A DNA stretch of 64,000 nt, taken from NCBI GenBank assembly GCA_041662665.1, contig JBAZSC010000001.1, forward strand, positions 129,511 through 193,510, read 5' to 3'. Under the pieces are notes generated by a model. It worked only from the letters and a program-made list of their open reading frames with translations, did no database searches and was not told the DNA's origin. Both the position numbers and the translations under genes were made by a program. Source of the stretch: Patescibacteria group bacterium. Lineage in GTDB: Bacteria > Patescibacteriota > JABMPQ01 > JAQVVF01. This document shows, one piece after another, positions 3,323 through 55,123 of the stretch (its first letter is position 1; every line of letters begins with the position of its first letter).

Positions 3323-3481
3323 GAATTTTTCATGAAGTTCATAATGTTATAAAGTTATAAAGTTCGTAAAGTCGGCAATGACTTTATAACTTTAAAAACT
3401 TTAAGAACTTTATAAACTTGTTTTATACTTTAAATTATACTATCATAAAGCTAGTTTTATTTCAACAGTAAAAATATAATT

Positions 3482-4492
3482 ATGCAAAACACAGTTGATA
3501 AATCAAATTTCAAAGACGTTGTAAAAAATTATCCAAAACAATTTGCCAAAGCTCTAGATTTTGCCAAGGATGTTAAAATCGAAGGTCAGTTTGAAAATGT
3601 CATTGTTTGTGGTTTGGGAGGATCTGCCTTGCCAGTTGATATGGTGATTTCATATTTAAAATCAAAAAATATTAATTTTCCGATTTCAGTTTGCCGAAAT
3701 TATACCTTGCCAGTAGAGGCCAATGAAAAAAGTTTGATCATTGCTTCATCTTTTTCAGGTTCAACTGAAGAAACAATTTCTTGTCTCAACGAAGCATTAG
3801 CAAAAAATTACAAAGTTGTTGGCATTGCTCGTGGTAAAGATATTTTAGAAATTTGTCAGTCAAAAAATATTCCATATATTCAATATCCAGATGATGGCCC
3901 AACATTCCAGCCTCGTTGTGCATCAGGCTATATTTTTACATCAATTGTAACGATTTTATCTAAAATAAAAGTTTTAGAAAATATTGAAAATGATTTAACA
4001 AATTTAGGTAAATTTTTAGAATCAATAAATATAGAACAAGAAAAAGCTGGTCAAGAATTAGCGCCTAAATTAAAAAATAATATTCCATTAATTTATACAA
4101 CAGAATTTTATCGCGATTCTATAGCTCGCATTTTTAAAATCAAATTAAATGAAAATGCAAAGACGCAAAGTTTTTTCAATTATTTTCCAGAATTGAATCA
4201 TAATGAAATGGTTGGTTTTACAAATTTAGTTGGCAAATATTTTATCATAATTCTGCAAGATCCAAATGATCATGACCGAAACAAAAAAAGAATGAATATT
4301 TTTAAAAATCTTTTAGAACAAAAAGGAATTAGTGTTGAAATTATCTTGATGAAAGGAAATTCTGTTTTAGAAAAAATATTTGCATCTTCACTTTTGGCAG
4401 ATTGGACTTCATATTATTTAGCTTTAGCTTATAATCAAGATCCAACGCCAGTAAATATGGTTGAAGAATTTAAAGAATTGATGAAAAAATAG
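3482..4492 (+). CDS. bifunctional phosphoglucose/phosphomannose isomerase-like SIS-domain protein
   Basis: 336 aa. VIVCGLGGSALP is a SIS-domain glycine-rich loop. Size and layout resemble archaeal-type PGI/PMI. Confidence 0.5.
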   Translation: MQNTVDKSNFKDVVKNYPKQFAKALDFAKDVKIEGQFENVIVCGLGGSALPVDMVISYLKSKNINFPISVCRNYTLPVEANEKSLIIASSFSGSTEETISCLNEALAKNYKVVGIARGKDILEICQSKNIPYIQYPDDGPTFQPRCASGYIFTSIVTILSKIKVLENIENDLTNLGKFLESINIEQEKAGQELAPKLKNNIPLIYTTEFYRDSIARIFKIKLNENAKTQSFFNYFPELNHNEMVGFTNLVGKYFIIILQDPNDHDRNKKRMNIFKNLLEQKGISVEIILMKGNSVLEKIFASSLLADWTSYYLALAYNQDPTPVNMVEEFKELMKK

Positions 4493-4521
4493 TTGACTGT
4501 TTAATCAAATTTTGTTTTAAT
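4493..4521 (+). promoter_or_regulatory. sigma70-like promoter (cassette A): TTGACT - 17 nt - TTTAAT
   Basis: Near-consensus -35, 17-nt spacer and -10, followed by a short leader with a GGAGGAG SD. One of three near-identical copies (approximate coordinates). Confidence 0.55.
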
Positions 4522-4549
4522 TTACGTAGCACCCTAACAGGAGGAGAGA

Positions 4550-4705
4550 ATGGATAGAGACAAAACTGCGATTGATCAAGAAGCTTTGCAATGGCTTCGG
4601 CAAAAAGAAAATAGTCGAAAAGTCATTATTGTAATTGACGATTTCAGCCTAAGAGTTTTACAGAAAGCTGTCAGTCCATTGTCAGTTCTGATCTCCGCAA
4701 ATTAG
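4550..4705 (+). CDS. small hypothetical protein (51 aa), first gene of cassette A
   Basis: ATG 8 nt after a GGAGGAG SD. Not in the ORF track because it is below the length cutoff. Sequence is MDRDKTAIDQEALQWLRQKENSRKVIIVIDDF... Confidence 0.4.
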   Translation: MDRDKTAIDQEALQWLRQKENSRKVIIVIDDFSLRVLQKAVSPLSVLISAN

Positions 4706-4732
4706 TTGTGATAGCAAAGAAGGAGGACAACG

Positions 4733-4921
4733 ATGGCCGATCAAAACAAAGAAAAGCAATTATCCGGATTTGAACAATTTGTTTTTGATCCCAAATCAAC
4801 TTTAAGCGCAACAGATCAAATGCTTGCCTGGCTAAAAAGACATGAAGAAGAAATTGCAGCAGCAGATAGAGAATCTGAAGCAGAATTTAGAAAAGCGCAA
4901 CCAATTTTTGATAAGTTCTGA
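4733..4921 (+). CDS. small hypothetical acidic protein (62 aa), second gene of cassette A
   Basis: ATG preceded by AAGGAGGA. Ends just before a hairpin + T-run terminator. Confidence 0.5.
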   Translation: MADQNKEKQLSGFEQFVFDPKSTLSATDQMLAWLKRHEEEIAAADRESEAEFRKAQPIFDKF

Positions 4922-4936
4922 TTCAGTCGAACTTTT

Positions 4937-4960
4937 TAGAGCTTAATTGCTCTTTTTTAT
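4937..4960 (+). terminator. rho-independent terminator AGAGC-ttaatt-GCTCT + T-run (cassette A)
   Basis: Stem-loop followed by TTTTTT. One of three near-identical copies (5388-5411 and 5870-5895 are the others). Confidence 0.55.
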
Positions 4961-4975
4961 ATTCAAAAATTAATA

Positions 4976-5004
4976 TTGACACATCGTTTAGATTTTGTTT
5001 TAAT
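4976..5004 (+). promoter_or_regulatory. sigma70-like promoter (cassette B): TTGACA - 17 nt - TTTAAT
   Basis: Consensus -35, 17-nt spacer, -10 TTTAAT, then the leader AGTACCTTGAGAGGAGG. Confidence 0.6.
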
Positions 5005-5032
5005 CTATACAGTACCTTGAGAGGAGGAAGCA

Positions 5033-13410: not shown

Positions 13411-13588
13411 TCTTAGTATAGCAGAAAACAGAAAATAGAAAAAGTTATCATTTAAAGTTAATAGTCAATTGTTAATTGTTAAATGTTAGAAAACAAGTTA
13501 TCAACTGTTCAAGTAATTGTTCAAATTAACATTTTTTGCTATACTATACTTAATTAGAAATATTTATAAAAACAAAAAACAATTTATC

Positions 13589-14347
13589 ATGAAAAACTTT
13601 AAACCATTAGGGGAAATTTTTAGTTCAGCTTGGAAACAATTTGAAAAAAATTGGGGTAATTATGTTGGTCTATCAGCAATTTTCACTGTTGCTCAATTTG
13701 TGATTATTTTTGTCGTTGTTTTTTCAATGGTCTTCTTGCAACTAGCCGGTATTTTCGGAAGTATTCCATTAATGATCAATCAAGATTCAACAACAGCTGG
13801 TTTTGGCGGAATGATAATGATCATAACAGTTATCACAACATCTCTGCTCTTATTCATTGCTGTCTTCGGCCTAAGTTTTCTTATCAATGCTTGGTTGATG
13901 AGAACAATGATTACCCTTATTGCTAAAAAACAATCTGGCAGTTTAGATTTTGTTCAATTCATTAAATCTTGCTGGCCAAAAGTTTGGCGAGTATTTTTTG
14001 CTATGATTTTAATGATGCTAATTATTTTTGTAGGTTTCATTTGTTTTATTATTCCAGGTATTATTTTTGGTCTCTGGCTTTCTCAAGTCTTATTCCTAAT
14101 AATTTTAGAAGATTTATCAATTAGCGATGCCTTCAAAAAATCTAAAGAATTAGTTTCAGGCCACATAGGTACAGTCTTTCTCTATAATTTCGTTTTTATG
14201 TTAGTAATGGAAGTTGGGCTAATGGCAATTAATATAATCCCATTTTTAGGAACTTTAGCCATGCCTGTATTGAGCATTGTCATGATTCCTTTAATGACAA
14301 TTTTTCAATATCATATATTTTTAGAACTTAAAAAACTTAATGGTTAA
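13589..14347 (+). CDS. hypothetical polytopic membrane protein
   Basis: The track ORF starts at 13517 over promoter-like sequence, so the internal Met at 13589 (MKNFKPLGEIF) is more plausible. Six or more hydrophobic helices. Confidence 0.45.
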   Translation: MKNFKPLGEIFSSAWKQFEKNWGNYVGLSAIFTVAQFVIIFVVVFSMVFLQLAGIFGSIPLMINQDSTTAGFGGMIMIITVITTSLLLFIAVFGLSFLINAWLMRTMITLIAKKQSGSLDFVQFIKSCWPKVWRVFFAMILMMLIIFVGFICFIIPGIIFGLWLSQVLFLIILEDLSISDAFKKSKELVSGHIGTVFLYNFVFMLVMEVGLMAINIIPFLGTLAMPVLSIVMIPLMTIFQYHIFLELKKLNG

Positions 14348-14458
14348 ATTGCTGAACTGTTAAATTGTTAACTGCCAAATTGTTTAACCATTAAGCAATT
14401 TAGCAATCGAACAATTTAGCAATTAAGCAATTTAGCAATAATTAATTTAATTTAAAAT

Positions 14459-17400
14459 ATGCCTCAAACGCAAAAAACTGAAGTAAAAACAAGAAGTCGA
14501 ACCAGTCAAATTACTGGTGTCGTTGCAGCTGTTGTTGCAGCAATTGGTATCGGCGCCCTTATCTATTTTGCCGTTGTCAACTACAACACAAAAATAACAA
14601 CACAAACAGAATTTTCTGTTTTTGAACAAGAGTATCAGCCAAATGTTGAGCCAGTTTCTGCAATTGTAACTGATCAAAATCAACTCGCTGATGCACAAAC
14701 AAAATTGGATGCAATTAAAGGTGTTGTTACTCCTGTAATTGAACAACAAGCTCAAGATACCGGCACAACTCCTGGACAGATAATTGATGTTACCCAAAAA
14801 GATGCAATGATTGAATCTCTTTCTGACCAAGTTGTTTCCGAAACCGCAACAGAAATTAAAGATGAAGTTAACATTTTAATCGGCAAAGACGAGCTCGATT
14901 TTTCTCAAGCACAGGCTGCTGAAGATTATACGATGATAAAAGTATTTGGTGATCTGACTAACGCAACAGGCGGTACAGATACAACTAGTTCAGGTGTAAC
15001 CTTAACAGATGCTCAAAAGAATACACTTGATACAATTGCTGAAAATACTTCAACTGATACAACTCAAAAAATTACGGAAGGTTCTACAAAAATTGCTCGA
15101 GAAACTAGTGGCAATGAAAGTGAAATCAATAGCGAACTTACTGCTGAAGTTATCAGTATTTTTGGACAGGCAACTGATTTCACGCTTACTGGAACAAAAG
15201 ATGAATTTGCTGCAGCAGAAGCTCCAGCACCAAACGAAGTAACTCCAGATATCTGGTTTTGTAATTCTGAAAATAATTGTCAGCAATCAGAATATGCTAC
15301 TTTAGATAAATGTAAACTAGAAAAAGGCATAGACAAATGTTTTGAAGGCAACACTTGCGGTGATTGCAAACAAGCAGCTCCAGTAGATGAAAGAGTCCAT
15401 ACTTGCTCTCCTGATAATATTTGTATGCCATCAACTTTGTATCCTACTTTAGCGGATTGTGTGACAGCTATAGGTGCTGACAAATGTTTTGAAGGCAATA
15501 CTTGTGTTTGTCAAGCTACACCAGCAAATGAACCAGCTGCCAGTCAATTTCAATTATATTTTTGTTTAAATGGAAATTGGACATCTGATAGTTTTGGAGG
15601 TAACTCTATAGATGAAGCAAAACAAGTTTGTAGTACTGCCATAGGCAACCAATGCTTTATTGATTCAAGTGATCCAGGTCATGATGCCGCAAAAGAAGCT
15701 TGCAAGCCAGCAGTTGATGAGCCAGTAATCGATGAATCAGCATTTTGTGTTGATAATGCCTGTGTACCTGGCCCAATTAATGTAAAGTGTACTCCTCCAA
15801 ATTGCCCTGAACGTTTTGATAATATGGAAGCATGCAATCTTTCAGATTGCGAGCCAAAGCAAGAATATGTATACTGTGCAGAAACTGGTTGTTTAGCTGA
15901 AAGTTTTAGCAGTCAAGGCGAATGTGAAGCACAGCATATCGGCGCTAATTGCAAATTATCAACACCTGAATCTATACAAGAGTGTAGTGATGCTTGCATC
16001 AAGATGGAGCAAGATCAACAATATTACACTTGCGATAGAGACGTAAATCAATGCAAGGCAGTTCAAAATCTTGATGAATGTGAAGTTAATGGCGGTACCA
16101 AATATTGCACAACGAATAATGATTGTTGCAAAGCAAATGTAATTCCAGTTCAAAAACAATATTACTATTGCGATAAAAATGATAAAACTAATGGTTGTAA
16201 ACAAACAGAACTACTTGACTCCTTAGAAGCCTGTCAAAATGCGCATCCAGATGGTGGCTGTATAGCTGATGTTAAAAAAGCTATTTGCGATGAAACATGC
16301 AAGCCCGATCCAGTTTTAGATGTAATTGAAGACGAATGTCATAATAATTTGCCAAATGATCCTAAATGCTCATTGCAAGTAATTGACAAAATAGAAAATA
16401 AACCAACAGGTGAAATTACAGAATACAAATTATCAGTCACATCTTCAATTATTTATCGAGGTTTAGGCAGAGTTATTATGAAATTCTGGGCCAATCCAAA
16501 CGATCCAGTTAACTTTGAATATACAAAGCAAAAATTAGCTAATGATTTTAAAGACAATAAATTAAGAGTCAGATTTGGCGATAAAAAAGAAGATTTGTCT
16601 GATGTCCTAAAAGTTTACAAAGATCCAAGAAATCCAAACAAATATTATGCTATTGCTTATAAATTAAATATTGATAATCTTTGGCAAAATGATGATGGAA
16701 AATATAATAGCAAAAAATATTTTTATCAAGTCAATGCCGACAATAAAAAATCAGATTTCTTTGATTTCCAATCTTTGCAAAGAGGCGGAGAAGTTCTTTA
16801 TGTCAAAAACAGATTATATAATGGACATTATGATTTAAAAAAATATGGAACTATTGAATTAAATCTAAAAAATAGTGGACAACTTGCCGGCAATATAAAA
16901 ACCTTGAACAACAAATTGAAAAATTTCGAAAATGGCGGTGTTAATTTCTGGACGCAAACTTCAAAAGTTTCTCCTTATGGCTTGAGAACTGCAATGGCTG
17001 GAGATCAAAGATTCAAACAATATTTTAGCATTTTGAAAAATCTGCAAAAGAAAAATGATATTACAAAAGCTGTTCAAGTTCTTTACAATTATCATGATCG
17101 TCTAAAACCTGAAGATATTTATCGTCGTTATGATCAAGGCGGTGTTAATTATTGGGTTAAGCAAGTTAACAATGATAAATTGTCGTTCAGCAGTATGGTT
17201 ACTTATGTCATGCTAGGTACAGATGAGCCAAAAACAAATCTTACACAATTCTGGGGCACAGGAAAATTAGCTACTAGAAAAGCAGAAATCGAATTAGGCT
17301 TTGTTAAATCTTTAAGCCGAGGCATTACTCAAATGTCAGATATTGATCGATTCATGAATTCTTCCAAATATATTTCTTCTGCAAGCATTAGAGCAGATTT

Positions 17401-17653: not shown

Positions 17654-17663
17654 ATTATAAAAA

Positions 17664-17690
17664 AGGCGAGATCGAAAAAGATCTCGCCTT
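17664..17690. terminator. hairpin AAGGCGAGATC-gaaaaa-GATCTCGCCTT between the two paralogs
   Basis: Perfect 11-bp stem. Weak T tract. Confidence 0.45.
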
Positions 17691-17704
17691 AATATTCCAA
17701 TTAT

Positions 17705-22973: not shown

Positions 22974-22974
22974 C

Positions 22975-23075: not shown

Positions 23076-23081
23076 TTCGAG

Positions 23082-37424: not shown

Positions 37425-37488
37425 GATTTTATTTTTATATATTTAAAAAGGCGAGAATCAATTCTCGTCTTTTTTAAAAAACCAAAAA

Positions 37489-37612: not shown

Positions 37613-37627
37613 TGTTAAAATCATTTC

Positions 37628-39769: not shown

Positions 39770-39950
39770 ACCCAGCTTTAGCTGGGGTTCGAAAAACTTT
39801 AGTTTTCGTCGGCGTTCTACTGCAACTTTAGTTGCACAAACCCCAGCTGAAGCTGGGTCATAAACGAGTTACTACCCAGCTTTTAGCTGGGGATTAAAAA
39901 TTTTGGATTGCAAAATTTTTACTGCAACTTTAGTTGCAGTAGTAGAAATT
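39770..39950. repeat. cluster of five short hairpins sharing a cTTTAg loop
   Basis: cccagctttagctgggg occurs three times and tgcaactttagttgca twice, arranged A-B-A-A-B between pcrA and rsmA. Confidence 0.6.
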
Positions 39951-40741: not shown

Positions 40742-41000
40742 TAACTAGTTACTCGAATAAGTTATACACAAGCAACAAAAATCAGAGAAATAATTATTTT
40801 ATTTAGGCTTAAACAAGGTTATTATTCTTATAACTTACAACTTATAACTTATTTCTTCGTTTTGACACAAATTCATAAAATTGTTATTATTAAGCTAATA
40901 GAAAAAGTCCGCAATTTCTGCGTTAGCTTCTGCGTTAGCTTCTGCGTTAGCTTCTGCGTAGTTTAGCGAGTATTTACAAAACAAAATCAAATTAATCAAA

Positions 41001-42041: not shown

Positions 42042-42153
42042 ACGAGCAAATTCCGCGTTTTCTGCGATTAAAAATTTATTTCAAAATTTTTAATTTCCGC
42101 GTAATTCTGCGTTAAAAACTAATTAAATAGACTAGTAGCAATTAAATTTATAA

Positions 42154-42990: not shown

Positions 42991-43148
42991 AATTAATAAA
43001 ATAGTTTTAGTCAGTTTCTGTGTTTTCTGCGTTAGATTCTGCGTCATTCTGCGAAAACGTTTTAAGCGCAGAAAAACGCAGAATCTAACGCAGAGTCAAA
43101 AATTTTTATAACAAAATTTTTGACGCAGAAAAAATAGCCACAATCAAC

Positions 43149-45413: not shown

Positions 45414-46835
45414 ATGCAAAGATTAAGTTTAACACAATTAGTCGATCAAAATATTTTTGACAAGATTTTCAAACAAGCACAAGACTGTGAGCGTTTTAGT
45501 TTTCAAGGAGAATATGGTCCAATAGCTTATCAGATTATTTTGACAATTGATAATGCGTTGCAAAAATTCCCTCAATTGAAATCAGAAAATCCAGAAATTT
45601 ACAAAAAATATAATGATCTAAATATTCATCTAAAATTCCATTGCCAAGAATATCTGCCAGATGATAATGATGTTTTAGATCTCTATGAAAAACATTTAGC
45701 TGATGCTTTGAAAAGAAATATGAATTTAGAAAGATGGCTTCGAAACAAGCTTATCTCAATGCGGATGACTTATCGCGATGAATACGTGAACAAAATAAAG
45801 GCAATAATCAAAAAAAACCAGCAAAAAATTGGTGAAAAAGAAATCATAATTTCTAATAAAAAATATCAGCCAACAATTGAAAATTGGATCAAAGATTATG
45901 AATATGAAGCTAATCCCGGCATCCATTCTTTAGTTGAAAGAAATAATTATTTTTTCCAATCCAAAAATCCTAGAAATTTGAATGAGCAAGAAAAGAAAGA
46001 ATTAAAAAAACTTTTGCAGCTTTTTGATCGAATGCAATTAAAAATAACTGACGCTGGAAGTTTAACTGGTTATTCAGCATCAATGTATGGCATTGAACTC
46101 AAAAAAACAGTTGATTTAGGCGCTTTTACAACCAAAGAGCAAGAGCATATTGATAAGGGAATCAAACAGCCTGCATCAAGTGTCAAGCCAATCCCATTCC
46201 CAACTAAAAAAACAGAACAGCGAGAAAAATTATTAGCAGAAAACAAAAAACTTGCCGAAAGAGAAATGCTTGGTGTAGTAGATATTAAAAAACTTCAGGC
46301 AGCTGAACCAAGCAATAGATTTATTGCATCTATAAAGAGAATCGGCAAACCAATAAAAAAAACAGAACCAAAAATTGAAGAAACAAAAGTAATAAAAGCA
46401 GTTCCAGAAAAAGAAGTTGTCAAAGAAATTGCAAAGCCAAAAACAGAAGAATTACCAAATCCTCCAAAAAAAGTTTTTCACAAAGAACACAAAATTTTAA
46501 CCCCAGCAAAGCCAGTCATTGTTTCCAAACAAATCAACAGAATTCAAAATCTTACTATTTTAGAATTCAGAGATCTAGGTACTGATGCAAAACAATCCGC
46601 GCAGAAATTATTAAATAATCTTCGCGATATTGCCAAGACTCATGAAGAGAGAAAAATTGCTCAAGAAAATTTCATGAAAAGTCCGCTTTACAAATTATAT
46701 GAGGCAATGACAAATCAAAGCGAAACAGAAAAAAAATCAATCAGCCAAGTTTCAAAAGATAGGCAAGATCAGAAAATGGAATATTTGTCGGAAGATGAAT
46801 ACATCGCGGTGAAAAGTATAAGCAAGCTTATCTAA
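45414..46835 (+). CDS. hypothetical Lys/Glu-rich soluble protein (473 aa)
   Basis: ORF inside the T4SS-like locus. No recognised motif. Confidence 0.45.
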   Translation: MQRLSLTQLVDQNIFDKIFKQAQDCERFSFQGEYGPIAYQIILTIDNALQKFPQLKSENPEIYKKYNDLNIHLKFHCQEYLPDDNDVLDLYEKHLADALKRNMNLERWLRNKLISMRMTYRDEYVNKIKAIIKKNQQKIGEKEIIISNKKYQPTIENWIKDYEYEANPGIHSLVERNNYFFQSKNPRNLNEQEKKELKKLLQLFDRMQLKITDAGSLTGYSASMYGIELKKTVDLGAFTTKEQEHIDKGIKQPASSVKPIPFPTKKTEQREKLLAENKKLAEREMLGVVDIKKLQAAEPSNRFIASIKRIGKPIKKTEPKIEETKVIKAVPEKEVVKEIAKPKTEELPNPPKKVFHKEHKILTPAKPVIVSKQINRIQNLTILEFRDLGTDAKQSAQKLLNNLRDIAKTHEERKIAQENFMKSPLYKLYEAMTNQSETEKKSISQVSKDRQDQKMEYLSEDEYIAVKSISKLI

Positions 46836-46949
46836 TTTCCAATTAACAATTTCCAATTTTCAATAAATTACCAATTTTCAATTTACAATGAATTCTCGCA
46901 GTTTTGAAAATTGGTTATTGGAAATTTATTGTAAATTGGTCATTGAAAA

Positions 46950-47393
46950 TTGAAAACTAATTTTATGCAGTATCCCATTCCTCAATTTGTCGAAATAGAA
47001 GACCAGATTATCGGCCCTCTGACTTTAAAACAATTTTTTTATTTATTAGGTGGCGGAATATTTTTACTGATTGCTTGGTCATTTGTTGATCTGACATTAT
47101 TCATTTTTCTAGCAATAATTGTTGCTGGAATAACAATGCCATTAGCTTTTGTCAAACCTTATGGCAGACCATTGACTGATTATCTTTCTGCAGTTTTCAA
47201 ATACATTTTAGGTCCAAAAATATTAGTCTGGCATAAAAGTGGAAGAGCTCCGAGAGTAAAAGCCTATGATCTTAATAAGAAAAAATCTGGTCCAGAAAAA
47301 ATCACCATTGGCGAAAAAAAATATACACCAAGCTCTATTCATCGTCTTGCAAGACAACTTGATTTTAAGACGGTCATGAGCGAAAAAAAATAA
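46950..47393 (+). CDS. small two-TM membrane protein, VirB3/PrgI-like candidate
   Basis: 147 aa. Two adjacent hydrophobic helices (LLGGGIFLLIAWSFVDLTLFIFLAIIVAGITMPLAF). Lies immediately upstream of the VirB4-like gene, as VirB3/PrgI does. Confidence 0.4.
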   Translation: MKTNFMQYPIPQFVEIEDQIIGPLTLKQFFYLLGGGIFLLIAWSFVDLTLFIFLAIIVAGITMPLAFVKPYGRPLTDYLSAVFKYILGPKILVWHKSGRAPRVKAYDLNKKKSGPEKITIGEKKYTPSSIHRLARQLDFKTVMSEKK

Positions 47394-47533
47394 TCATAAA
47401 TGATCAATTTCCAATTCTCAATTTTCAATAAGTTGCCAATGAACAATTTTCAATGGCTACTTCGTAAGTTTTGAAAATTGGTTAATTGATAATTTATTGG
47501 AAATTGTAAATTGATAATTGAAAATTAAAACTG

Positions 47534-48277
47534 ATGTCCAAAAAACAAGACAAGAAAAAAAATAGTGCTGAAACAAAGCAACAAGAAGAAACAATGCTTT
47601 CAAGCAAAGCAGTCAAGAAAGAAGAAGAGACTACTCAGAAGTTTTTAAAATTGTCTGGAATTAGAGATGGAATAGTAATTTTAAATAATAAAGCTCTACG
47701 AGCAATTGTAATGTGTTCATCAATTAATTTTGCTTTAATGTCTGAAGATGAACAAAAAGCAAAAGTTTTTGGCTATCAAGATTTTTTAAATTCATTAAAT
47801 TTTCCAGTTGAGATTGTCATTCAGACCAGAAAATTAAATATTGGAAGTTACTTAGAAAAAGTCAAAGAAGCAGAAAGAATGCAGGAAAACGAATTATTGA
47901 GAATCCAGACAGCAGAATATGCTGAATTTATCAAATCTTTAGTTGAACTAGCAAATATCACAACTTCTCATTATTATGTTGTTGTCCCATATTCTCCTCC
48001 TGGCATTGAAGCAACAGAAGGAATTTTAGATAAACTAAAAGGCATAATTTCACCAGCTTCAAAAATAAAAGAAGAGCAAGTTGGTTTTCAAAAGCAACAA
48101 GAAGAGCTTTTGCTTCGTGTTAATTCAGTTATCAGTGGTTTAGGCGGAGTTGGAATTCAATCAGCACAGCTAAATACTCAGGAAGTAGTTGAGCTATTAT
48201 ATTCATGGTATAATCCAGATGAGAGCACCACTGAGATTTTAGGAGAATTAGAGAAGCTCAAGATAGAGCAGGCATAA
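47534..48277 (+). CDS. VirB4/TrsE-like ATPase, N-terminal domain encoded as a separate ORF
   Basis: FLKLSGIRDGIVILNNKALRAIVMCSSINFALMSEDEQKAKVFGYQDFLNSLNFPVEIVIQTRKL matches the N-terminal region of Gram-positive VirB4 homologs (pattern I..DG.I......F.K.Y.L.DINF.....EEQ...F..F..FLNS....V.FQI). In homologs this region is contiguous with the segment that opens the next ORF. Confidence 0.55.
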   Translation: MSKKQDKKKNSAETKQQEETMLSSKAVKKEEETTQKFLKLSGIRDGIVILNNKALRAIVMCSSINFALMSEDEQKAKVFGYQDFLNSLNFPVEIVIQTRKLNIGSYLEKVKEAERMQENELLRIQTAEYAEFIKSLVELANITTSHYYVVVPYSPPGIEATEGILDKLKGIISPASKIKEEQVGFQKQQEELLLRVNSVISGLGGVGIQSAQLNTQEVVELLYSWYNPDESTTEILGELEKLKIEQA

Positions 48278-48278
48278 A

Positions 48279-48762
48279 AAAAATCCCAAATCCCAAATTC
48301 CAAACAAATTACAAATCACAAAAAACAAAATTGCCCGAACAAAATAAAACTAACAAATTATATAATCTCGAAGACCGAACTTTAGAATTTAGTAAAAGAG
48401 TTGCCAATATGTGCAACGCTTTGCCTAAAAATTATATTAATATTGTTTATATAAATCAGATTTTAAGATCAGGGAGTTCGATAGGTGCTAATTACATAGA
48501 AGCAAATGAATCATTAGGAAAAAAAGATTTTAAAATGAAAGTAAGAATTGCTAGAAAAGAAGCAAAAGAAACAACTTATTGGCTGAATTTAATAATAGAT
48601 GCTAATCCAGAATTTAGAAAAAGAATTGAACCATTATTACAAGAATCAATCGAAATAAGAAATATTTTATCAACAATAATAAACAAATCTAATTAATTTT
48701 TTTTGTAATTTGTATTTTGTATATTGTAATTTGTTTGGAATTTGGGATTTGTAATTTATAAT
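48279..48762 (+). mobile_element. IVS-like element: four-helix-bundle gene carried inside a 'caaatcccaaat'-family inverted repeat, inserted at the junction of the split VirB4 gene
   Basis: Left arm aaaatcccaaatcccaaattccaaacaaattacaaatcacaa (about 48279-48330). Right arm ttgtaatttgtattttgtatattgtaatttgtttggaatttgggatttgtaattt (about 48700-48762). Both flank CDS 48331..48696. Confidence 0.45.
48331..48696 (+). CDS. four-helix-bundle protein (23S rRNA IVS-type family), second copy
   Basis: LEFSKRVANMCNALPKNYINIVYINQILRSGSSIGANYIEANESLGKKDFKMKVRIARKEAKETTYWLNLI. Shares the family pattern with the 27846 gene. Non-ATG (TTG) start per the track. Confidence 0.55.
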   Translation: MPEQNKTNKLYNLEDRTLEFSKRVANMCNALPKNYINIVYINQILRSGSSIGANYIEANESLGKKDFKMKVRIARKEAKETTYWLNLIIDANPEFRKRIEPLLQESIEIRNILSTIINKSN

Positions 48763-50313
48763 AACGTTATGCAGGACAAAGATTTGCCAGTTGGCAAAAA
48801 AAATATCGAAAATTTGACTGAAGATGAGCAACAAGAAATCCTTAAGGCTGAAGAAATTTACAGAAAGGGTCTGGTTTCGATTCGCGATATTATTGCGCCA
48901 AGTGCATTGCAGGTTAATCCAAATTTTCTTAAATTAGGCGACAAGTTTGTCAGAACTTTGTTTATTTTTACATATCCTCGTTTTGTAAATACTGGCTGGT
49001 TTGCTCCAGTTATCAACATGAACATCGAAGCTGATATGGCGATGTATATTAATCCAGTTAGCTCCGAAAAAATCCTAAAAACTTTAAAAAATAAAGTTGG
49101 ACAAATCCAATCCACAATGGCAGGCAAGCAAGAAAAAGGCGAAGTTAGAGATCCAATGCTAGAAACAGCACTCAATGATGTTGAAGAACTTCGCGATCGT
49201 TTGATACAAGGCACAGAAAGATTTTTTCATTTTGCATTATATATCACAATTTACGAGAATTCTGAAAAAAAATTAGAGCAAACAACCAAAGAAATTGAAG
49301 ATTTACTTGGTCAAAGATTAATTTATTCCAAGCGAGCTTTTTTTCAAGCTGAACAAGGATTCAATACTACAACTCCGCTAGGTTTAGATGAACTAGGAGT
49401 CCTCAACAATTTTAATACATCTCCATTATCAACTAGTTTTCCATTTGTTTCTTCAGAATTAACTTCCGATGAAGGTGTTCTTTATGGAATTAATCGTCAT
49501 AATAATAGTCTAATTTTATTCGATCGTTTTACTTTGCCAAATGCTAATTCAGTTGTATTTGCAACTTCTGGTGCTGGAAAAAGTTATGCTGTAAAATTAG
49601 AAATTTTAAGATCTTTAATGTTTGGAACAGAAGTTATCGTCATTGATCCAGAAAATGAATATAAATATTTATGTGAATCAGTTGGAGGAACATTTTTAAA
49701 AATGTCTCTAGAATCAGAATACAGATTAAATCCATTTGATTTGCCAGTAGCAATTTCCGGCATGAAAACAAAAGACATTATTAGATCTGCAGTTATCAAT
49801 ATCAAAGGCTTATTAAGAATCATGTTGGGCCGTCTTACTAAAGAAGAAGATGCTTTGTTAGATAGAGGAATTATTGAGACATATGCTAAAAAAGATATTA
49901 CTGCTGAATCAGATTTGTCAAAAATAGAAGTTCCGACAATGAAAGATCTGCAAGAAATTCTAGAAGGCATGCAAGGAGCAGAGGATATAGTTCCAAGAAT
50001 TAAAAAATATACTGAAGGCACTTTTGCTGGATTATTAAATCAAGCCACAAATGTCAGAATTGATAATCCATTTGTCGTTTTTAGCATCAGAGATCTAGAA
50101 GATGAGTTACGTCCAATCGCAATGTATGTTATTCTTAATCATATCTGGAATATTGTTAGAGCAGAGATGAGAAAAAGAATTTTGGTAGTTGATGAAGCTT
50201 GGTGGATGATGCAATACGAAGAATCTGCCAGATTTATGTACAGTATTGCCAAAAGAGGCCGAAAATATTATCTTGGCACAACCACAATTTCTCAGATGTT
50301 AATGATTTTCTAA
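48742..50313 (+). CDS. VirB4/TrsE-like ATPase, central ATPase portion (frame changes near 50300)
   Basis: DIIAPSALQVNPNFLKLGDKFVRTLFIFTYPRFVNTGWFAPVIN (conserved VirB4 segment). Walker A VVFATSGAGKSYAVKLE. Walker B/arginine region ILVVDEAWWMM...AKRGRKYYLGTTTISQ. The likely start is the Met at about 48769, which has no SD. The ORF terminates 2 codons after the conserved TQ. Confidence 0.7.
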   Translation: MGFVIYNNVMQDKDLPVGKKNIENLTEDEQQEILKAEEIYRKGLVSIRDIIAPSALQVNPNFLKLGDKFVRTLFIFTYPRFVNTGWFAPVINMNIEADMAMYINPVSSEKILKTLKNKVGQIQSTMAGKQEKGEVRDPMLETALNDVEELRDRLIQGTERFFHFALYITIYENSEKKLEQTTKEIEDLLGQRLIYSKRAFFQAEQGFNTTTPLGLDELGVLNNFNTSPLSTSFPFVSSELTSDEGVLYGINRHNNSLILFDRFTLPNANSVVFATSGAGKSYAVKLEILRSLMFGTEVIVIDPENEYKYLCESVGGTFLKMSLESEYRLNPFDLPVAISGMKTKDIIRSAVINIKGLLRIMLGRLTKEEDALLDRGIIETYAKKDITAESDLSKIEVPTMKDLQEILEGMQGAEDIVPRIKKYTEGTFAGLLNQATNVRIDNPFVVFSIRDLEDELRPIAMYVILNHIWNIVRAEMRKRILVVDEAWWMMQYEESARFMYSIAKRGRKYYLGTTTISQMLMIF

Positions 50314-50611: not shown

Positions 50612-50715
50612 GCCACAAATCCCAAATTCCAAACAAATTTCAAATTACAAATCACAAAATTGCAAGTTTGTTTATTGTGATTTGTGATTTGTTTGGATTT
50701 TGGAATTTGTAATTT
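50612..50715. repeat. intergenic composite palindrome, 'caaatcccaaat' family (copy 6)
   Basis: ccacaaatcccaaattccaaacaaatttcaaattacaaatcacaaaattgcaagtttgtttattgtgatttgtgatttgtttggattttggaatttgtaattt. Confidence 0.7.
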
Positions 50716-50741: not shown

Positions 50742-51410
50742 ATGTTTAAAAAATCTTACATCATTTTAGCTCTAACATTAATTGCACTTGCAACAACTGC
50801 CTTCGGTTGTAAAAAAGCCGACACAAATACTAATCAGCCAGCCAATCAAAATGCAAATGTTGTTGCCAACAATACAAACGTGGTTGCAACAAATGATAAT
50901 GAGTTTCCGATTGTAAATGCCAATGAAGCATTAAATGCAAATGAAAATGTTACACTTAATGTCAATGAAACAGAAAATGCAGTTACAGAAAATTTAAATG
51001 CCATCGAAAATCAAGGCGAAATAAAAGTTGAGCAAGACCAAGAAAAAACAGTTTTAGCTTTAGCTTCAAAAATTGCTGAAATTTACGGCACTTTTACTAA
51101 CAAGGACAAAGAAGCCTACAAAAATCTAAAAACAATCAAAACTTACTCAACAGAAAAAATGAGCGCTTTTCTTGATGAACAAATTGCCAAACCGATAGAT
51201 CCAAAAGCATCATTTTATGGTGTAACCACAAAAACAATCAGTTCTGGAATTTCTGATACAACTGATAAAGAAATGACTGCCATTGTTACAACCAAGAGAG
51301 AAGAAATCACAGCTCAAAATAACAAGCCAACTGTCAAATATCAAATTTTAAAACTTGAATTTACAAAAGTCGGTGAAGAATGGAAATTAAGCGGGGCTTT
51401 CTGGTTGTAA
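50742..51410 (+). CDS. lipoprotein (Asn/Val-rich N-terminal region)
   Basis: Signal peptide + lipobox LATTAFGC. Confidence 0.5.
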   Translation: MFKKSYIILALTLIALATTAFGCKKADTNTNQPANQNANVVANNTNVVATNDNEFPIVNANEALNANENVTLNVNETENAVTENLNAIENQGEIKVEQDQEKTVLALASKIAEIYGTFTNKDKEAYKNLKTIKTYSTEKMSAFLDEQIAKPIDPKASFYGVTTKTISSGISDTTDKEMTAIVTTKREEITAQNNKPTVKYQILKLEFTKVGEEWKLSGAFWL

Positions 51411-51600
51411 TAATACAAATATGCAAATTTATGCAAATGATACGAATATACGAATTCGCAAATTATAATTAGTTCTAAAAAGTGATTTACAATCAAAAAT
51501 AAAATATTCGCTCGATTCGCATATTTGCAACATTTGCATTATTCGTATATTCGTATTATATTTTCACGTTTCTACTCGATAATTTTTTTAAATAATCAGT

Positions 51601-52266: not shown

Positions 52267-52271
52267 AATAT

Positions 52272-53750
52272 ATGAACAAAAACAAAATAATCATTTTCTT
52301 TGGGTTAATAACATTGCTTTTAGGTTTTAATCAAGTTTTTGCGCAAGACGAGGTTCAATTCCCAAGCGATCTGCAAAGCTTTATTAATGCTAACCCAAAC
52401 AATATTACTTCGAATGATCTTAAAAACATGCTTCCATTAAGCGTTACTTTAGATTATTCTCCAAAGCCAGTTTCAGCAACAAGTCCAGTCAAAGTGACAG
52501 CTAATGCGATTAGCAGTACTCAATCAAATGGCGTAACTTATCGCTGGTTTTTGGATGGCCAAGAAAAAAAGGTCAGCAATTCTGTTTTTGAATTTAATAT
52601 GAATGAAGGATTAATTCGCCAAGATTTGCGTTGCGGAGATTCTCGAGAAATAAAAGTTGAAGCCTCAAATTCTAATACTAAAGAAAAAGCAATTTCCACA
52701 TTAAAAATTCCGATTGGCTTAGATTTGTCATTTAACAAAAGATCAATTGGTGTTGCTGATCAAAATAATGCTGCTACAACAGATTATAATTTGAATAAAG
52801 CAGATATTGATCCAAATAGCATTATTTTGCAGGCTCCAGATATTTTCTTAAAGCCAACTCCTTCGCAAAATGAATTTCGTTTTGGAGATATTGTTCAAGT
52901 TGAAGCTGTAGATTTAAGGAATACTTATAACAATCAAGCTTGTACTTCCGCTTCCAATTTCACAAGTTTAGACAGCTATTTAGATAGCCTAAATTATCAA
53001 TGGACATATAATGGAACAGTTCAACAAGGAAAAAGCGGCAAAGGACAAAAATTTAAAACTGCTTCTTTCGTTATCAACACTTTGCCTGCACAAGTAATCC
53101 AAAATGATTTAGGATCATGCAACGCTACACAATCCCAAAATATCAATGTTGTTGGTTTAACAATTGCAGATTCTTCTGGAAAAACTTTAGCAACAAAGCA
53201 AGAATCATTAAATGTCATCGCTCCTCAAATTAATATCAAGCCAATTTGCGGCGCTTTCGGCAAAGATGTTAATTGCGCAAATATTAATTCCACAAATTTA
53301 AAATCAACTTATGGCGTTGCTCAAAGTTATCAATTAAATTCTGGCCAAACAATTAATTTTCAAGCAAATTTAAATAATTTTCAGCCATCACAACAATTAA
53401 ATTTAATTTGGAAAGTTAATGGCACAGAAGTTGATAACAAAACTATCGTTGATCCAAATACTCCATATTTCACTTCTCCAAATCTTACAATGACTAGCCA
53501 AATTCAGATTGTCGAAGTTAGCGCAATTAACACTGTCTATAATTCCAATCAAACAGAAAATGCCACTCAAAAAATTATTTTAACTCCAACTCAAGTTAAT
53601 GCCCAAATTTCTACATCTGGCACTCTAGGATCATTGCAAAAATTCTTGCCTAAAAATTTCCGAAATTTATATAATTTTATTGCAGCAGCCGGATTATTAG
53701 GTATTATAATTTTATTAATAACTATAAAAGAGAAGAAAAAAAATGGATAG
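52272..53750 (+). CDS. secreted protein with a C-terminal TM anchor
   Basis: Signal peptide IIIFFGLITLLLGFNQVFA. Beta-rich body. C-terminal AAAGLLGIIILLITI + KEKKKNG. Confidence 0.45.
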   Translation: MNKNKIIIFFGLITLLLGFNQVFAQDEVQFPSDLQSFINANPNNITSNDLKNMLPLSVTLDYSPKPVSATSPVKVTANAISSTQSNGVTYRWFLDGQEKKVSNSVFEFNMNEGLIRQDLRCGDSREIKVEASNSNTKEKAISTLKIPIGLDLSFNKRSIGVADQNNAATTDYNLNKADIDPNSIILQAPDIFLKPTPSQNEFRFGDIVQVEAVDLRNTYNNQACTSASNFTSLDSYLDSLNYQWTYNGTVQQGKSGKGQKFKTASFVINTLPAQVIQNDLGSCNATQSQNINVVGLTIADSSGKTLATKQESLNVIAPQINIKPICGAFGKDVNCANINSTNLKSTYGVAQSYQLNSGQTINFQANLNNFQPSQQLNLIWKVNGTEVDNKTIVDPNTPYFTSPNLTMTSQIQIVEVSAINTVYNSNQTENATQKIILTPTQVNAQISTSGTLGSLQKFLPKNFRNLYNFIAAAGLLGIIILLITIKEKKKNG

Positions 53751-54984
53751 AAAAAGAATATTAATTATCATTGGTATCGTCGCGTTGATTATTGCTTTCG
53801 CTGCAACAATCTATTTTGTGATTTTCCGAAAGCAAACAAAAGTTGCTTCAGATCTTCCAGCTTTAAATGAATCAGAACAACAAAGATTGCAATTAACAAA
53901 TGAAGAAAGAGCTGCCGGCGTTACTGAAGACCAAAAAATCCAGCAATATGTTGCTGAAAAAAGGAAAGAAATTGCCTTACAAGCAGAAACAGCAGTTACA
54001 AATAAATATCGAGTCATTCCAGTCTTAAACCAAAAATCAATTAGCCCAACATTATCAGCTGATTTTAGTAAACTTATTTTTTACAGCCCAGAAAATAAAG
54101 AATTTTATGTTGCCAATTTAGATGGCAGTCAGCCTTCGCCAATAACTTCATCTGCAATTGACAAAGTTTATGATATTTCATGGTCCAAGAAAAAAGATCG
54201 AGCAGTCATGACATTGTCAGACAATCAAGGATTGACCAGAAATTATTTAATTTTTGATATTAACAATCAAAAACAAACTCCAGTTGATCCAAATTTCAAA
54301 TCTCCAACATTATCTCCAGATGGTGAAAAAATCGCATATTTATTTAAAGACAAAGCATCAGGCACTTCCAATATTTCTGTTTCTAATTTAGATGGCACGA
54401 ATTGGAATAGCGTTTCTCCTTTTGAAGGCGAGTTTCCAATTATCAATTGGAATCTAGAATCAAAGCTTCTTTATTACAGCGAGCCAAGCACTCAAACAAA
54501 TGCCACTGCTTTTTCCGCCAATATTATTGGCAAAAGTTTCAATCAATTAGTTAGTGATTTTGGTCTTAATGTTAATATTTCAAATGACGGCAACAAAATT
54601 GTTTATTCAGGACAAAATGTTTCAAGCGCCACTACAACAAATTTGCAATTCTATGATGTTTTAGCAAATAAAAATGTTGATTTAGGCGTTCAAACATTTG
54701 CTGATAAATGTACTTGGCTTCCAGATAATCAAAATTTAATTTGCGCAATTCCAGAGAATCTAAGCAAATGTATGATTTTGCCAGATGCCTATAATAATTA
54801 TAATTTTGTTTCCAAAGATTCTTTCTTCAAAGTTGATACTCAAAATAACAAGACAACAAAATTAGCAGATACAAGTTTATTCGCTCAAGATTATGATGTC
54901 TTCAAGCCATTCATGCTTGGCGAAAAAATAATGTATTTTACAAGAAGACAGGATGGATTGCTTTATGCGTTTGTTATTCCTTGA
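53743..54984 (+). CDS. membrane-anchored TolB-like beta-propeller (PD40 repeat) protein
   Basis: N-terminal TM. PD40-like repeats LSPDGEKIAYLFKD and ISNDGNKIVYSGQN. Confidence 0.45.
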   Translation: MDRKRILIIIGIVALIIAFAATIYFVIFRKQTKVASDLPALNESEQQRLQLTNEERAAGVTEDQKIQQYVAEKRKEIALQAETAVTNKYRVIPVLNQKSISPTLSADFSKLIFYSPENKEFYVANLDGSQPSPITSSAIDKVYDISWSKKKDRAVMTLSDNQGLTRNYLIFDINNQKQTPVDPNFKSPTLSPDGEKIAYLFKDKASGTSNISVSNLDGTNWNSVSPFEGEFPIINWNLESKLLYYSEPSTQTNATAFSANIIGKSFNQLVSDFGLNVNISNDGNKIVYSGQNVSSATTTNLQFYDVLANKNVDLGVQTFADKCTWLPDNQNLICAIPENLSKCMILPDAYNNYNFVSKDSFFKVDTQNNKTTKLADTSLFAQDYDVFKPFMLGEKIMYFTRRQDGLLYAFVIP

Positions 54985-55123
54985 CGAATTTTCAATTTAT
55001 AATTTCTAATTTCTATTAAATTTTAAATAACTAATTTCTAAAGCTATCGTAGAGAAGGTTTGAAAATTTTAGCATTGAAAATTTAATAGAAATTAGGAAT
55101 TAGAAATTAGAAATTTTCTCTTT

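Follow-up and report, generated by a model that had tools for sequence, protein, structure and literature searches.

Palindromes between the genes of the window

The window, which is the whole 64-kb stretch of DNA that was analysed, belongs to one very small Patescibacteria genome, and all window counts are confined to that stretch. Between its genes lie hairpins of 70-150 bases, which are built from reiterated 7-9-base motifs. Their arms of 30-67 nt consist wholly of reiterated units, and they fill entire gaps from a stop codon to the next start codon, within operons and 5' UTRs. Ten ORF-less palindromes follow one plan, which we call type A (palindromes and arrays are listed without strand):

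22965-23076: type A, AAATCC family, 52-nt arms, in the recF-dciA gap
26247-26356: type A, AAATCCC, in the infB-rbfA gap
26694-26811: type A architecture, AGAATCT units, between rbfA and a DHH-family gene
29044-29152: type A, CAATTTY family, in the cdaA-ybbR gap, beginning at the stop codon and ending just short of the start codon
35661-35809: type A, AATTTCT family, 63-nt loop with a terminator-like GC hairpin at 35704-35722
37489-37601: type A, AAATCCC, beyond the canonical terminator 37446-37475 and ahead of pcrA
46833-46959: type A, CAATTTY family, 56-nt arms, upstream of a PrgI-like gene
47399-47526: type A, CAATTTY family, downstream of the PrgI-like gene
50615-50710: type A, 86-94% identity with the arms that enclose the ORF in the element 48281-48757
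54987-55115: type A, AATTTCT family, 45-nt loop

Further palindrome families and half elements are:

3329-3416: palindrome, 8-9-nt units (GTTATAAAG), between divergently oriented genes
14319-14457: palindrome of 8-nt units (AATTGTTA / GCAATTTA)
21780-21852: palindrome, 9-nt units (GTTAGACTA), located after the conserved terminator 21710-21745
24221-24289: palindrome, 7-nt units (AGTAAYT), with the conserved infB promoter (24191-24219) on one side and the start codon of infB (ATG at 24294) on the other
30354-30393: half element, a direct array of ATAACTTT without inverted partner
30968-31057: palindrome of 8-9-nt units (ATACAAAT / ATGCAAAT), after clpP
34117-34215: composite inverted arrangement of GATATTACGGA / AATATCC, after the RNase Y gene
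40916-40959 and 42051-42110: direct arrays related to the TTCTGCG palindrome
43026-43094: TTCTGCG-family palindrome, 93% complementary
51410-51559: palindrome of the ATACAAAT family, 59-nt loop

With an einverted-like dynamic programme, we found 21 strong inverted repeats (score at least 45) in the 9.0 kb of intergenic DNA, far above chance. At the same score, dinucleotide-shuffled intergenic DNA gave a mean of 0.35 (maximum 2) and 50 kb of coding DNA gave one, and 7-mer-block shuffles, a control that preserves local motif content, gave a mean of 0.65 (maximum 3) with this programme. A/T-rich low complexity by itself, which the original prediction had named as a possible refutation, is thus insufficient to explain the repeats. 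For the 41 intergenic regions that reach 40 nt, RNAfold energies gave a median z-score of -3.7 relative to dinucleotide shuffles; 24 of these regions fell below -3, compared with none of 41 length-matched coding controls (median +0.14).

All ten motif examples of the original prediction were recovered at their coordinates, as forward and/or reverse-complement copies. Three of the sites, at 30354-30393, 40916-40959 and 13457-13488, are direct arrays without an inverted partner. Its statement that most intergenic regions carry such a hairpin was slightly generous: among regions 40 nt or longer, the proportion is about half to 60%. The sharing of motifs by nearby regions appears as a weak tendency, neighbours of one family forming five pairs where 2.1 would be expected (p about 0.05). 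The description as a genome-wide feature of architecture holds. Since the same families recur in independent MAGs, and a separate metagenome contig from JGI shows 100% identity across 2683 bp spanning two palindromes, we conclude that the palindromes are not assembly artefacts. Copies inside the window are 80-93% alike, and no near-identical paralogues were seen among them (best match 42-58 nt at 86-93%); therefore, recent transposition is not demonstrated.

The type A architecture

Each of the ten type A palindromes has the plan 7-7-(11)-7-7, its units being placed about an AAAYAAAT block that is conserved. Their autocorrelation peaks at lags of 7, 14, 18, 25 and 32, with none at 21, 28 and 35. 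The arms align with arms from L001, L002, L004, L041 and L062 on the AAAYAAAT/ATTAAAT block, the architecture is also met in distant Patescibacteria, and the core sequence occurs on viral contigs of 53-65% GC, where some copies are hairpins. That motif families listed as different have this one architecture in common had been overlooked.

PF05635 genes in the loops of split palindromes

Two further elements of the window enclose a gene of the PF05635 family (23S-rRNA-IVS protein, S23p, Avd-like four-helix bundle), a tie that had also escaped the original prediction:

27792-28276, + strand: ORF-bearing element, arms 27792-27822 and 28246-28276 of TAAAATTAA-like 9-mers, filling the gap from the stop of the DHH-family gene to the start of cdaA
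27846-28223, + strand: PF05635 gene enclosed by these arms
48281-48757, + strand: ORF-bearing element, type A arms 48281-48329 and 48709-48757 (49 nt, 88% complementary), filling the gap between the gene 47534-48277 and a VirB4/TraG-like gene
48331-48696, + strand: PF05635 four-helix-bundle gene enclosed by these arms

The two genes, ivp1 and ivp2, were assigned with E values of 2e-29 and 5e-17 (TIGR02436; PDB 2GSC), and ivp1 has a weak match to the PHROG 'Avd protein of DGR'. Each of the two genes occupies the loop of a split palindrome, and the flanks of these palindromes do not fold separately; each flank of the 48281-48757 element by itself has an MFE of 0. In other genomes, 11 independent homologues (L020, L026, L027, L055, L123/L127, L133, L134, L137, two in L139, and L141) likewise have tandem arrays of 7-9-mer motifs at their flanks. 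Inverted complementarity between the flanks was confirmed in 10 of the 11; the second copy in L139 is truncated where the locus ends and has one readable flank. Such flanks were seen at 6 of 614 other small genes (1%). The arms in L127 are decayed, and therefore complementarity is not always maintained. The ORF has the same orientation as at least one adjacent gene in 13 of 13 cases. No transposase was seen among the ORFs of the window, and to our knowledge PF05635 is not a known transposase or nuclease.

The same AAATYCC...AAACAAAT arms accompany proteins similar to ivp2 (68-75% identical) in three gene contexts that are unrelated to one another, namely a T4SS-like cluster in the window, between uppS and an NTP-transferase gene in L123, and between glyS and an M16 peptidase gene in L133 (46% GC). 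One unit of arms and ORF is thus present at unrelated loci and genomes. The ORF-less palindromes at 22965, 26247, 37489 and 50615 match the arms of ivp2-like elements at 88-97% over 27-51 nt, and the two stay colinear as far as the inner end, ACAAAAT(T/G)G, a stretch that includes the start codon of the ORF. Likewise, palindromes of the CAATTTY and AATTTCT families match an ORF-bearing element of L026 in its arms, and the palindrome 3329-3416 is similar to the arms of ivp1-like elements in L137 and L141. For the TTCTGCG and GATATTACGGA families, no match to any ORF-bearing element was found.

Turnover between related species

In the related species L001 and L002 (about 80% nucleotide identity in coding DNA), orthologous intergenic sites are empty or carry another palindrome family, and the canonical terminators are kept. 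The recF-dciA site, filled by 22965-23076 in the window, is a 5-nt spacer in L001, and the site of 14319-14457 is an 8-nt spacer in L002. The site of 21780-21852 is empty in L001 and holds another family in L002. Between rbfA and the DHH-family gene (26694-26811) both species have a CCTAAAT-family palindrome, and the 3' site of RNase Y (34117-34215) holds a CAATTTT type A palindrome in L001 and a TTGCGAATA-type one in L002. The ORF-bearing element 27792-28276 is absent from L001-L005. No target-site duplication was visible in three comparisons of filled and empty sites. One orthologous hairpin pair of L001 and L002 is 93-96% identical, compared with about 83% for the flanking genes, and shows two fully compensatory CG>TA changes; another orthologous pair differs by an indel of one heptamer.

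Relation to terminators and RNA-level signatures

That the palindromes are not ordinary terminators is borne out by the separate presence of canonical GC-rich ones, which, unlike the palindromes, the related species have kept:

17663-17690, 21710-21745, 31637-31656 and 37446-37475: canonical GC-rich terminators with T-runs

Most palindromes have no T-run and are not called as terminators. Some lie downstream of canonical terminators, and the 5' UTR of infB holds another, which separates the conserved promoter from the ATG. The original prediction had offered bidirectional termination, mRNA stabilisation, insulation and recombination as hypothetical roles; no RNA signature of the sense strand was found.

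The palindromes could be RNA structures selected by the host, either intercistronic processing or stabiliser elements or unconventional terminators, in which case the likeness to 23S-rRNA intervening sequences (IVSs) would be secondary (exaptation, or the ORF as a passenger of the loop). We consider this explanation unlikely. It would fit the filling of stop-to-start gaps in conserved operons, such as infB-rbfA and cdaA-ybbR, the long and stable stems, and the orthologous hairpin that is more conserved than its flanking genes and has compensatory changes. However, a selected role of the sense RNA is argued against by hairpin stability without sense-versus-antisense bias, by stems in which G.U is not favoured over A.C mismatches (18 vs 23), and by the absence or replacement of palindromes at the same sites in sister species with conserved genes. 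The lack of a T-run in most of them and the positions beside or downstream of canonical terminators and in the 5' UTR speak against it as well.

Nature of the palindromes

We propose, with a probability of roughly 0.55, that the palindromes belong to a superfamily of selfish elements that form hairpins and are of the 23S-rRNA IVS kind, probably mobile or at least duplicative. The ORF-less hairpins look like versions, without the gene, of a selfish element that had so far been known from rRNA genes alone. In its full form, the element would consist of two inverted arms of tandem 7-9-nt units around a small PF05635 gene; in the window this form is sited between protein-coding genes rather than in rRNA, and its ORF runs in the direction of at least one neighbouring gene. 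On this reading, the majority of the window's copies are ORF-less miniatures of two arms and a short loop, related to the ORF-bearing form as MITEs are to transposons. Such miniatures may have descended by loss of the ORF from full elements, or ORFs may have been inserted into the loops of pre-existing hairpins. The elements would be inserted inside transcription units. They turn over fast between species, and within an element units are gained or lost one at a time as the arms remain complementary. By analogy with rRNA IVSs, RNase III would cut the transcribed 40-55-bp stem; insertion between genes may be harmless because this cut would remove the element from the transcript. No rnc gene was seen in the retrieved DNA, which carries no weight either way.

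It is improbable, in our view, that the palindromes are a mutational by-product with neither mobility nor function, in which slippage makes tandem 7-9-mers in A/T-rich spacers, intrastrand template switching makes the inverted copies, and streamlined genomes poor in repair and SbcCD merely tolerate the hairpins. Locally unique motifs, the direct-only half arrays at 30354 and 40916, the one-unit indel in an orthologous pair and complementarity that at times runs a few bases into the end of the upstream gene agree with such an origin, but the 7-mer-block shuffles (0.65 vs 21 observed), the same architecture and near-identical arms at unrelated loci of distant genomes (46% GC, and viral contigs of 53-65% GC), and the strong and specific association with one gene family do not.

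We likewise give little weight to the units being operator- or iteron-like DNA sites for a nucleoid protein, a regulator or the pentameric four-helix-bundle protein itself, with symmetry reflecting binding geometry instead of a hairpin: the regular unit length with a fixed irregular 11-nt unit, the same motif in consecutive intergenic regions (TTCTGCG at 40916, 42051 and 43026), the enrichment of a CG-containing motif in loops and the pentameric toroid of the Xanthomonas S23p homologue (PMC4990558) would suit it, but a spacing of 7 bp does not keep step with the turns of the DNA helix, unit sequences vary widely among elements of one genome, and compensatory changes keep the arms paired.

If the IVS-type reading is true, an element so far bound to rRNA occupies about half of the intergenic gaps in a Patescibacteria bacterium.

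Comparison with known systems

The window genes belong to the same protein family as Avd of diversity-generating retroelements, which is a PF05635 member. Unlike in those retroelements, neither a reverse transcriptase nor a template/variable repeat pair was found near the PF05635 genes of the window. REP/BIME sequences with RAYT transposases are also imperfect palindromes in intergenic spaces within operons. Enterobacterial REPs are species-specific at orthologous sites, have been proposed as mRNA stabilisers, and are about 20-40 nt, G+C-rich and marked by a conserved GTAG. In contrast, the Patescibacteria elements are 70-150 nt, A/T-rich and composed of tandem units, and no RAYT was seen among the window genes.

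MITEs and bacterial miniature palindromes (Correia, RUP, ERIC and Rickettsia palindromic elements) are similar in being short, ORF-less intergenic inverted repeats that are often co-transcribed, have termini in common with a larger element that bears an ORF, and are polymorphic for insertion among related genomes. Unlike MITEs, the elements described here have a partner ORF that is not a transposase, left no target-site duplication in the three comparisons, and have arms internally reiterated on the 7-7-11-7-7 plan, with window copies 80-93% alike.

Cyanobacterial STRR and the TAACTGA repeats of Beggiatoaceae, Cyanobacteria and Bacteroidetes are intergenic tandem 7-nt units as well, often just upstream of start codons, and horizontal spread is suspected (PMC4679880). 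A Beggiatoaceae genome has 169 direct heptamer sets and one inverted set (PMC4679880), whereas the Patescibacteria arrays are inverted, hairpin-forming pairs with many unit sequences and an associated gene.

The 23S rRNA IVSs with an S23p ORF, known from Coxiella, Leptospira, Brucella and Xanthomonas, likewise place a PF05635/S23p ORF in the loop of a long terminal stem. The Coxiella IVS has a 28-bp terminal stem, is excised by RNase III, and carries tandem heptamers whose number varies between strains (PMC4990558). Variable-number heptamers beside the ORF, the sense orientation of the ORF in the host transcript and a sporadic, horizontal-looking distribution are further likenesses (PMC4990558). 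The Patescibacteria elements differ in lying between protein-coding genes or in a 5' UTR instead of 23S helices 9, 25 or 45, in their much longer and wholly reiterated arms, and in their ORF-less miniatures, which in the window outnumber ORF-bearing copies by about 10:1 and occupy about half of the intergenic regions.

Palindromes in the intergenic DNA

All the motifs of the original prediction, which described long intergenic hairpins built from locally reiterated short units, were found where it had placed them. A windowed-MFE hairpin caller was too permissive, returning many weak coding stems, and was replaced by an einverted-like dynamic programme, which gave 23 matches in the window, 21-22 of them intergenic. 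Inverted repeats numbered 21 in 9.0 kb of intergenic DNA, compared with 0.35 in dinucleotide shuffles and 0.65 in 7-mer-block shuffles, and the same scan found a single one in 50 kb of coding DNA. Relative to dinucleotide shuffles, folding z fell below -3 in 24 of 41 intergenic regions (those 40 nt or longer) and in none of 41 coding controls. The shuffle and coding controls thus indicate that low complexity is no explanation for the palindromes, and the possibility that A/T-rich sequence alone yields them at this frequency, which would have spoken against the prediction, did not hold (21 observed, 0.35-0.65 shuffled).

The window has a G+C content of 31% and encodes IF-2, RbfA, RNase Y, PcrA, RecG, RecF, ClpP, CdaA, HU and T4SS-like proteins. 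Neither rRNA nor any other Rfam family was matched in it at the gathering threshold, and the E-value mode returned sub-threshold generic hairpin or miRNA-precursor matches; tRNA and tmRNA genes were not found in the window. One intergenic region (4493-5032), at 540 nt unusually long for a compact genome, has no palindrome, a folding z of -0.55 and no Rfam match.

Anatomy and placement of the palindromes

The arms are 26-56 nt long and 71-93% complementary with 7-25% G+C, most loops span 3-17 nt and some 45-63 nt, and whole elements measure 70-150 nt. Autocorrelation of the arms peaks at lags of 7, 14, 18, 25 and 32, with none at 21, 28 or 35, indicating a 7-7-(11)-7-7 plan common to ten palindromes despite their differing units (AAATCCC, CAATTTY, AATTTCT, AGAATCT). 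In these ten palindromes, termed type A, the 5' arms can be aligned with the reverse complements of the 3' arms on a conserved AAAYAAAT/ATTAAAT block, and the alignment takes in arms from loci of other genomes (L001, L002, L004, L041 and L062). Units of 8, 9 or 12 nt occur in the palindromes at 3329, 14319, 21780, 30968, 51410 and 43026.

Many elements have their 5' end -9 to +6 nt from the upstream stop codon, and in several the 3' end is 1-8 nt ahead of the next start codon. They lie inside conserved operons (infB-palindrome-rbfA-palindrome-DHH, cdaA-palindrome-ybbR and recF-palindrome-dciA). One separates the infB ATG from its conserved promoter (TTGACT-17-TAAAAT, 24191-24219), and two stand downstream of canonical terminators (21710, 37446).

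CG dinucleotides are enriched 6-fold in the loops (5.6 vs 0.93 per 100 nt in the arms, p 2e-12). The motif TCGTCGA / CGACGA is frequent in loops of the window and of the related species L001 and L002 and was not seen in more distant lineages; the TCGT form is on the + strand in all nine window loops that contain this motif. Examples are as follows.

23017-23024, CG motif in a loop
24250-24261, CG motif in a loop
26301-26307, CG motif in a loop
47459-47466, CG motif in a loop
27824-27830, CG motif in the inner left arm of an ORF-bearing element

Upstream of pcrA (37583-37630; compare L002 21640-21680), TTGTAA-17 nt-TAAAAT is followed 6 nt later by the ATG, and the TAAAATCATTTCATG part of this promoter-like sequence is conserved in L002. 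Judged from its sequence, this arrangement suggests that the pcrA mRNA may be leaderless, with a -35 that falls where the 3' arm of the palindrome ends. The start codons inspected by eye had no evident Shine-Dalgarno-like sequence upstream. The longest-ORF rule picks TTG starts inside G/T-rich 3' arms (23058, 26316, 29137, 46950, 48742); from alignment with orthologs, the real starts are ATGs further downstream, for example 23082, 26361 and 29155. For annotation, this means that TTG starts in 3' arms are over-called and that automatic N-termini are likely over-extended.

Comparison with related genomes

Our analysis covered 64 kb from a single genome together with related loci totalling about 1.7 Mb, the compared species being about 20% diverged. 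By IF-2 amino acid identity, the nearest genomes are the Patescibacteria MAGs L001 (94%), L002 (91%), L003 (76%) and L004 (59%), followed mainly by Moranbacteria/Moraniibacteriota MAGs at about 45%. Synteny with L001 and L002 covers window positions 10-38 kb, the genes there showing about 80% nucleotide identity. One JGI contig is 100% identical to the window across 2683 bp, two palindromes included; the metagenome scan for closer relatives gave this identical contig and otherwise proteins of at most 55% identity, and a look-up of identical proteins led back to the same genome alone.

L001 and L002 retain the canonical GC-rich terminators but not the palindromes. A palindrome site may be a 5-9-nt spacer elsewhere, as in L001 at recF-dciA and in L002 at 14348, and the region 3' of the RNase Y gene carries GATATTACGGA in the window, a CAATTTT type A palindrome in L001 and a TTGCGAATA type in L002. 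The same palindrome families reappear at differing loci in differing species, and paralogues within the window are only 80-93% alike over 40-80 nt. At three filled/empty sites no target-site duplication was visible between these species, which are about 20% diverged and have A/T-rich flanks there.

Gene content also differs. The 211-aa gene at 34234-34869, which has no family match, and the PF05635 element at 27846-28223 are both absent at the syntenic positions of L001 and L002. Two proteins of 1064 and 1135 aa, encoded within 14459-21112 upstream of the T4SS-like cluster, have no Pfam or NCBIfam match, and the second is missing or strongly diverged in L002. The T4SS-like cluster (within 46950-50313) encodes a PrgI-family protein and a VirB4/TraG-like ATPase. 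Together these two regions may form an integrated conjugative or surface-apparatus region.

Palindromes with a PF05635 gene in the loop

Two window elements, 27792-28276 (ivp1) and 48281-48757 (ivp2), consist of the following parts.

27846-28223, PF05635 gene (PF05635 E 2e-29, TIGR02436, PDB 2GSC E 1e-12)
27792-27822 and 28246-28276, 9-mer arms around this gene
48331-48696, PF05635 gene (E 5e-17)
48281-48329 and 48709-48757, type A arms around this gene, 88% complementary

The names of the PF05635/TIGR02436 family, whose members are four-helix-bundle proteins, are '23S rRNA intervening sequence protein', S23p and Avd. Each gene occupies the loop of a split palindrome, which takes up the entire gap between the neighbour genes. 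Each flank alone has a folding energy of zero, indicating that the arms of these elements are not two separate hairpins. PADLOC gave no defence-system match for either protein.

The same architecture was found at independent homologues, some in loci already fetched (L020, L026, L027, L055) and others from protein searches (L123/L127, L133, L134, L137, two in L139, L141). Tandem 7-9-mer arrays flank these genes, and 10 of the 11 show flank-to-flank inverted complementarity; the second L139 copy ends at the locus edge with one flank readable. The homologues are wedged between housekeeping genes (uppS|NTP-transferase, glyS|M16, ackA|murJ, ftsI|murE), each co-oriented with at least one adjacent gene. 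Among other small genes, flank complementarity occurred in only 6 of 614 (97 loci), and the three of these that were cross-checked (W 46950 in the window, L001 12513, L002 12535) are genes between two complete palindromes.

These elements are related to the ORF-less palindromes by sequence. The same type A arms accompany proteins 68-75% identical to the second window copy at three loci with unrelated neighbouring genes, one being in a genome of 46% G+C. The ORF-less AAATCCC palindromes of the window are 88-97% identical to those arms and colinear with them as far inward as ACAAAAT(T/G)G, the inner terminus, in which the ORF start codon lies. Likewise, L026 has an ORF-bearing element whose arms match the CAATTTY and AATTTCT palindromes.

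Other repeats

A separate G+C-rich palindromic family (TGTCATCCTGAGCGAAGCGAAGGATCC ... GGATTCTTCG...CTCAGAATGACA), with no sequence relationship to the A/T-rich tandem-unit palindromes, occurs at 60552-60633 and 36975-37100 and in distant Patescibacteria (L034 at 5843, 13754, 15207 and 16817; L050 3096-3372; L062 9854). Between pcrA and the rRNA adenine dimethylase gene (39770-39900), ACCCAGCTTTAGCTGGGG(T) is present three times; two of the copies pair as the outer stem of a G+C-rich hairpin of 89 nt, the intergenic MFE being about -59 kcal/mol, and an analogous ACCCCTGCCATGGGCAGGGT palindrome lies at another site in L002 (21552-21629). Upstream of a radA-like gene, 58945-59159 forms a 215-nt hairpin with arms of about 106 nt (MFE -84 kcal/mol) and four copies of AAGGTTCGGC / GCCGAACCTT, for which Rfam gave nothing above noise.

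The type A core CCAAATTCCAAACAAAT was also present on five contigs classed viral in IMG/VR, four of 53-65% G+C and a fifth (L143) of 39%. Sites on the other four are as follows.

L144 10697-11397
L145 4117
L146 2065
L147 791-892, 1387-1546 and 3893-4013

Hairpins were found on two of these contigs, three on L147 and, on L144, an arm pair around a 597-nt loop that has no PF05635 match. The viral contigs hint that the palindrome family spreads beyond A/T-rich Patescibacteria.

Interpretation

The most economical explanation, to which we give a probability of about 0.55, is that the palindromes belong to a superfamily of hairpin elements of the type of 23S-rRNA intervening sequences (IVSs), lying inside transcription units and turning over rapidly. 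Both ORF-bearing copies and ORF-less miniatures, the latter about ten times as many, would have inserted inside transcription units, and the two forms would be connected either by ORF loss or by ORF insertion into the loop. We infer from rRNA IVSs that RNase III would cut the transcribed stem, and stems of 40-55 bp should be adequate substrates. The gene for this enzyme, rnc, had no match in the fetched loci, which are local neighbourhoods only. As for how the elements spread, the window has neither a transposase nor identical recent copies, and target duplications were not visible.

Host-selected RNA structure is a weaker explanation. The orthologous hairpin L001 12364 / L002 12386 is 93-96% identical, compared with about 83% for the surrounding genes, and two CG>TA double changes in it are fully compensatory; by MFE, the sense fold is as stable as the antisense fold, and the single mismatches in stems (18 G.T vs 23 A.C) bear no sense-RNA signature. 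The palindromes could also be by-products of slippage plus template-switching, likewise a weaker account, and another orthologous pair of L001 and L002 differs by exactly one heptamer. Arrays for protein binding, built of the tandem units, are a weaker proposal too.

Under the IVS-type reading, elements of this kind, mainly ORF-less miniatures, have colonised about half of the intergenic spacers in a streamlined genome, and their families are conserved across distant Patescibacteria yet turn over rapidly between sister species. The elements account for a large share of the non-coding DNA in very small genomes, and assemblies probably break at their repeats. Should the stems be RNase III sites, operon transcripts would be systematically cut between genes in these organisms. 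With many copies and filled/empty sites, they offer a natural system for the movement of IVS-type elements and the role of S23p/Avd-like proteins.

A joint reading that we consider unlikely goes further. The PF05635 pentamer (S23p / Avd-like) would be a factor dedicated to the mobility or maintenance of tandem-7-9-mer hairpins, a class both widespread and unrecognised. The hairpins would spread without a canonical transposase, perhaps via an RNA or hairpin-DNA intermediate, and RNase III would remove them from transcripts. As an analogy, Avd assists reverse transcription in DGRs. If this were true, 23S IVSs, the Patescibacteria palindromes and possibly the intergenic heptamers of other phyla would be one mechanism.

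Comparison with known systems

Our search of the literature on intergenic palindromes or MITEs of Patescibacteria/CPR found nothing specific. TIGR arrays occur in Patescibacteria and can be palindromic, being clusters of 36-nt units or stem-loops with box C/D motifs and an adjacent Tas (Nop-domain) gene; they were rejected on anatomy, the elements here being dispersed single hairpins of 7-9-nt units with no adjacent Tas-like gene. REP/BIME elements are 20-40-nt G+C-rich palindromes with a conserved 5' GTAG, plus a RAYT, and are ruled out by the 70-150 nt length and the 7-25% G+C of the arms; no RAYT lies within the window. An intrinsic (rho-independent) terminator is a short G+C-rich stem and then a T-run. 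The consensus promoter/terminator scan called canonical terminators at 21710, 31637, 35704 and, on the minus strand only, 37452-37467; it left the palindromes uncalled, and their stems are A/T-rich with 26-56 nt per arm, which excludes this class.

MITEs match in part. As in MITEs, the ORF-less copies share terminal inverted repeats with an ORF-bearing element, colinear at 88-97% identity. On the other hand, a MITE parent encodes a transposase, whereas the enclosed gene here is PF05635, for which we know of no catalytic activity. The window ORFs showed no transposase domain.

The closest likeness is to IVSs, which to our knowledge have been known for 35 years only as rRNA-gene oddities. The 23S IVS of Coxiella has an S23p ORF with a 28-bp terminal stem and tandem GACAGAT heptamers whose number varies between strains, and it is excised by RNase III; it has long been suggested to be a mobile element that uses its ORF to move (PMC4990558). 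Enigmatic direct heptamer repeats between genes have also been described in Beggiatoaceae, Cyanobacteria and Bacteroidetes (PMC4679880). In the window, an S23p/PF05635 ORF lies inside the two ORF-bearing copies only, the others being ORF-less, and complementary termini form a long stem around the ORF in both. Arrays of period 7-9 occur in all arms and vary in number, as in the one-heptamer indel between L001 and L002. The difference lies in location: IVSs occupy helix 9, 25 or 45 of the 23S rRNA gene, whereas all copies here lie between protein-coding genes.
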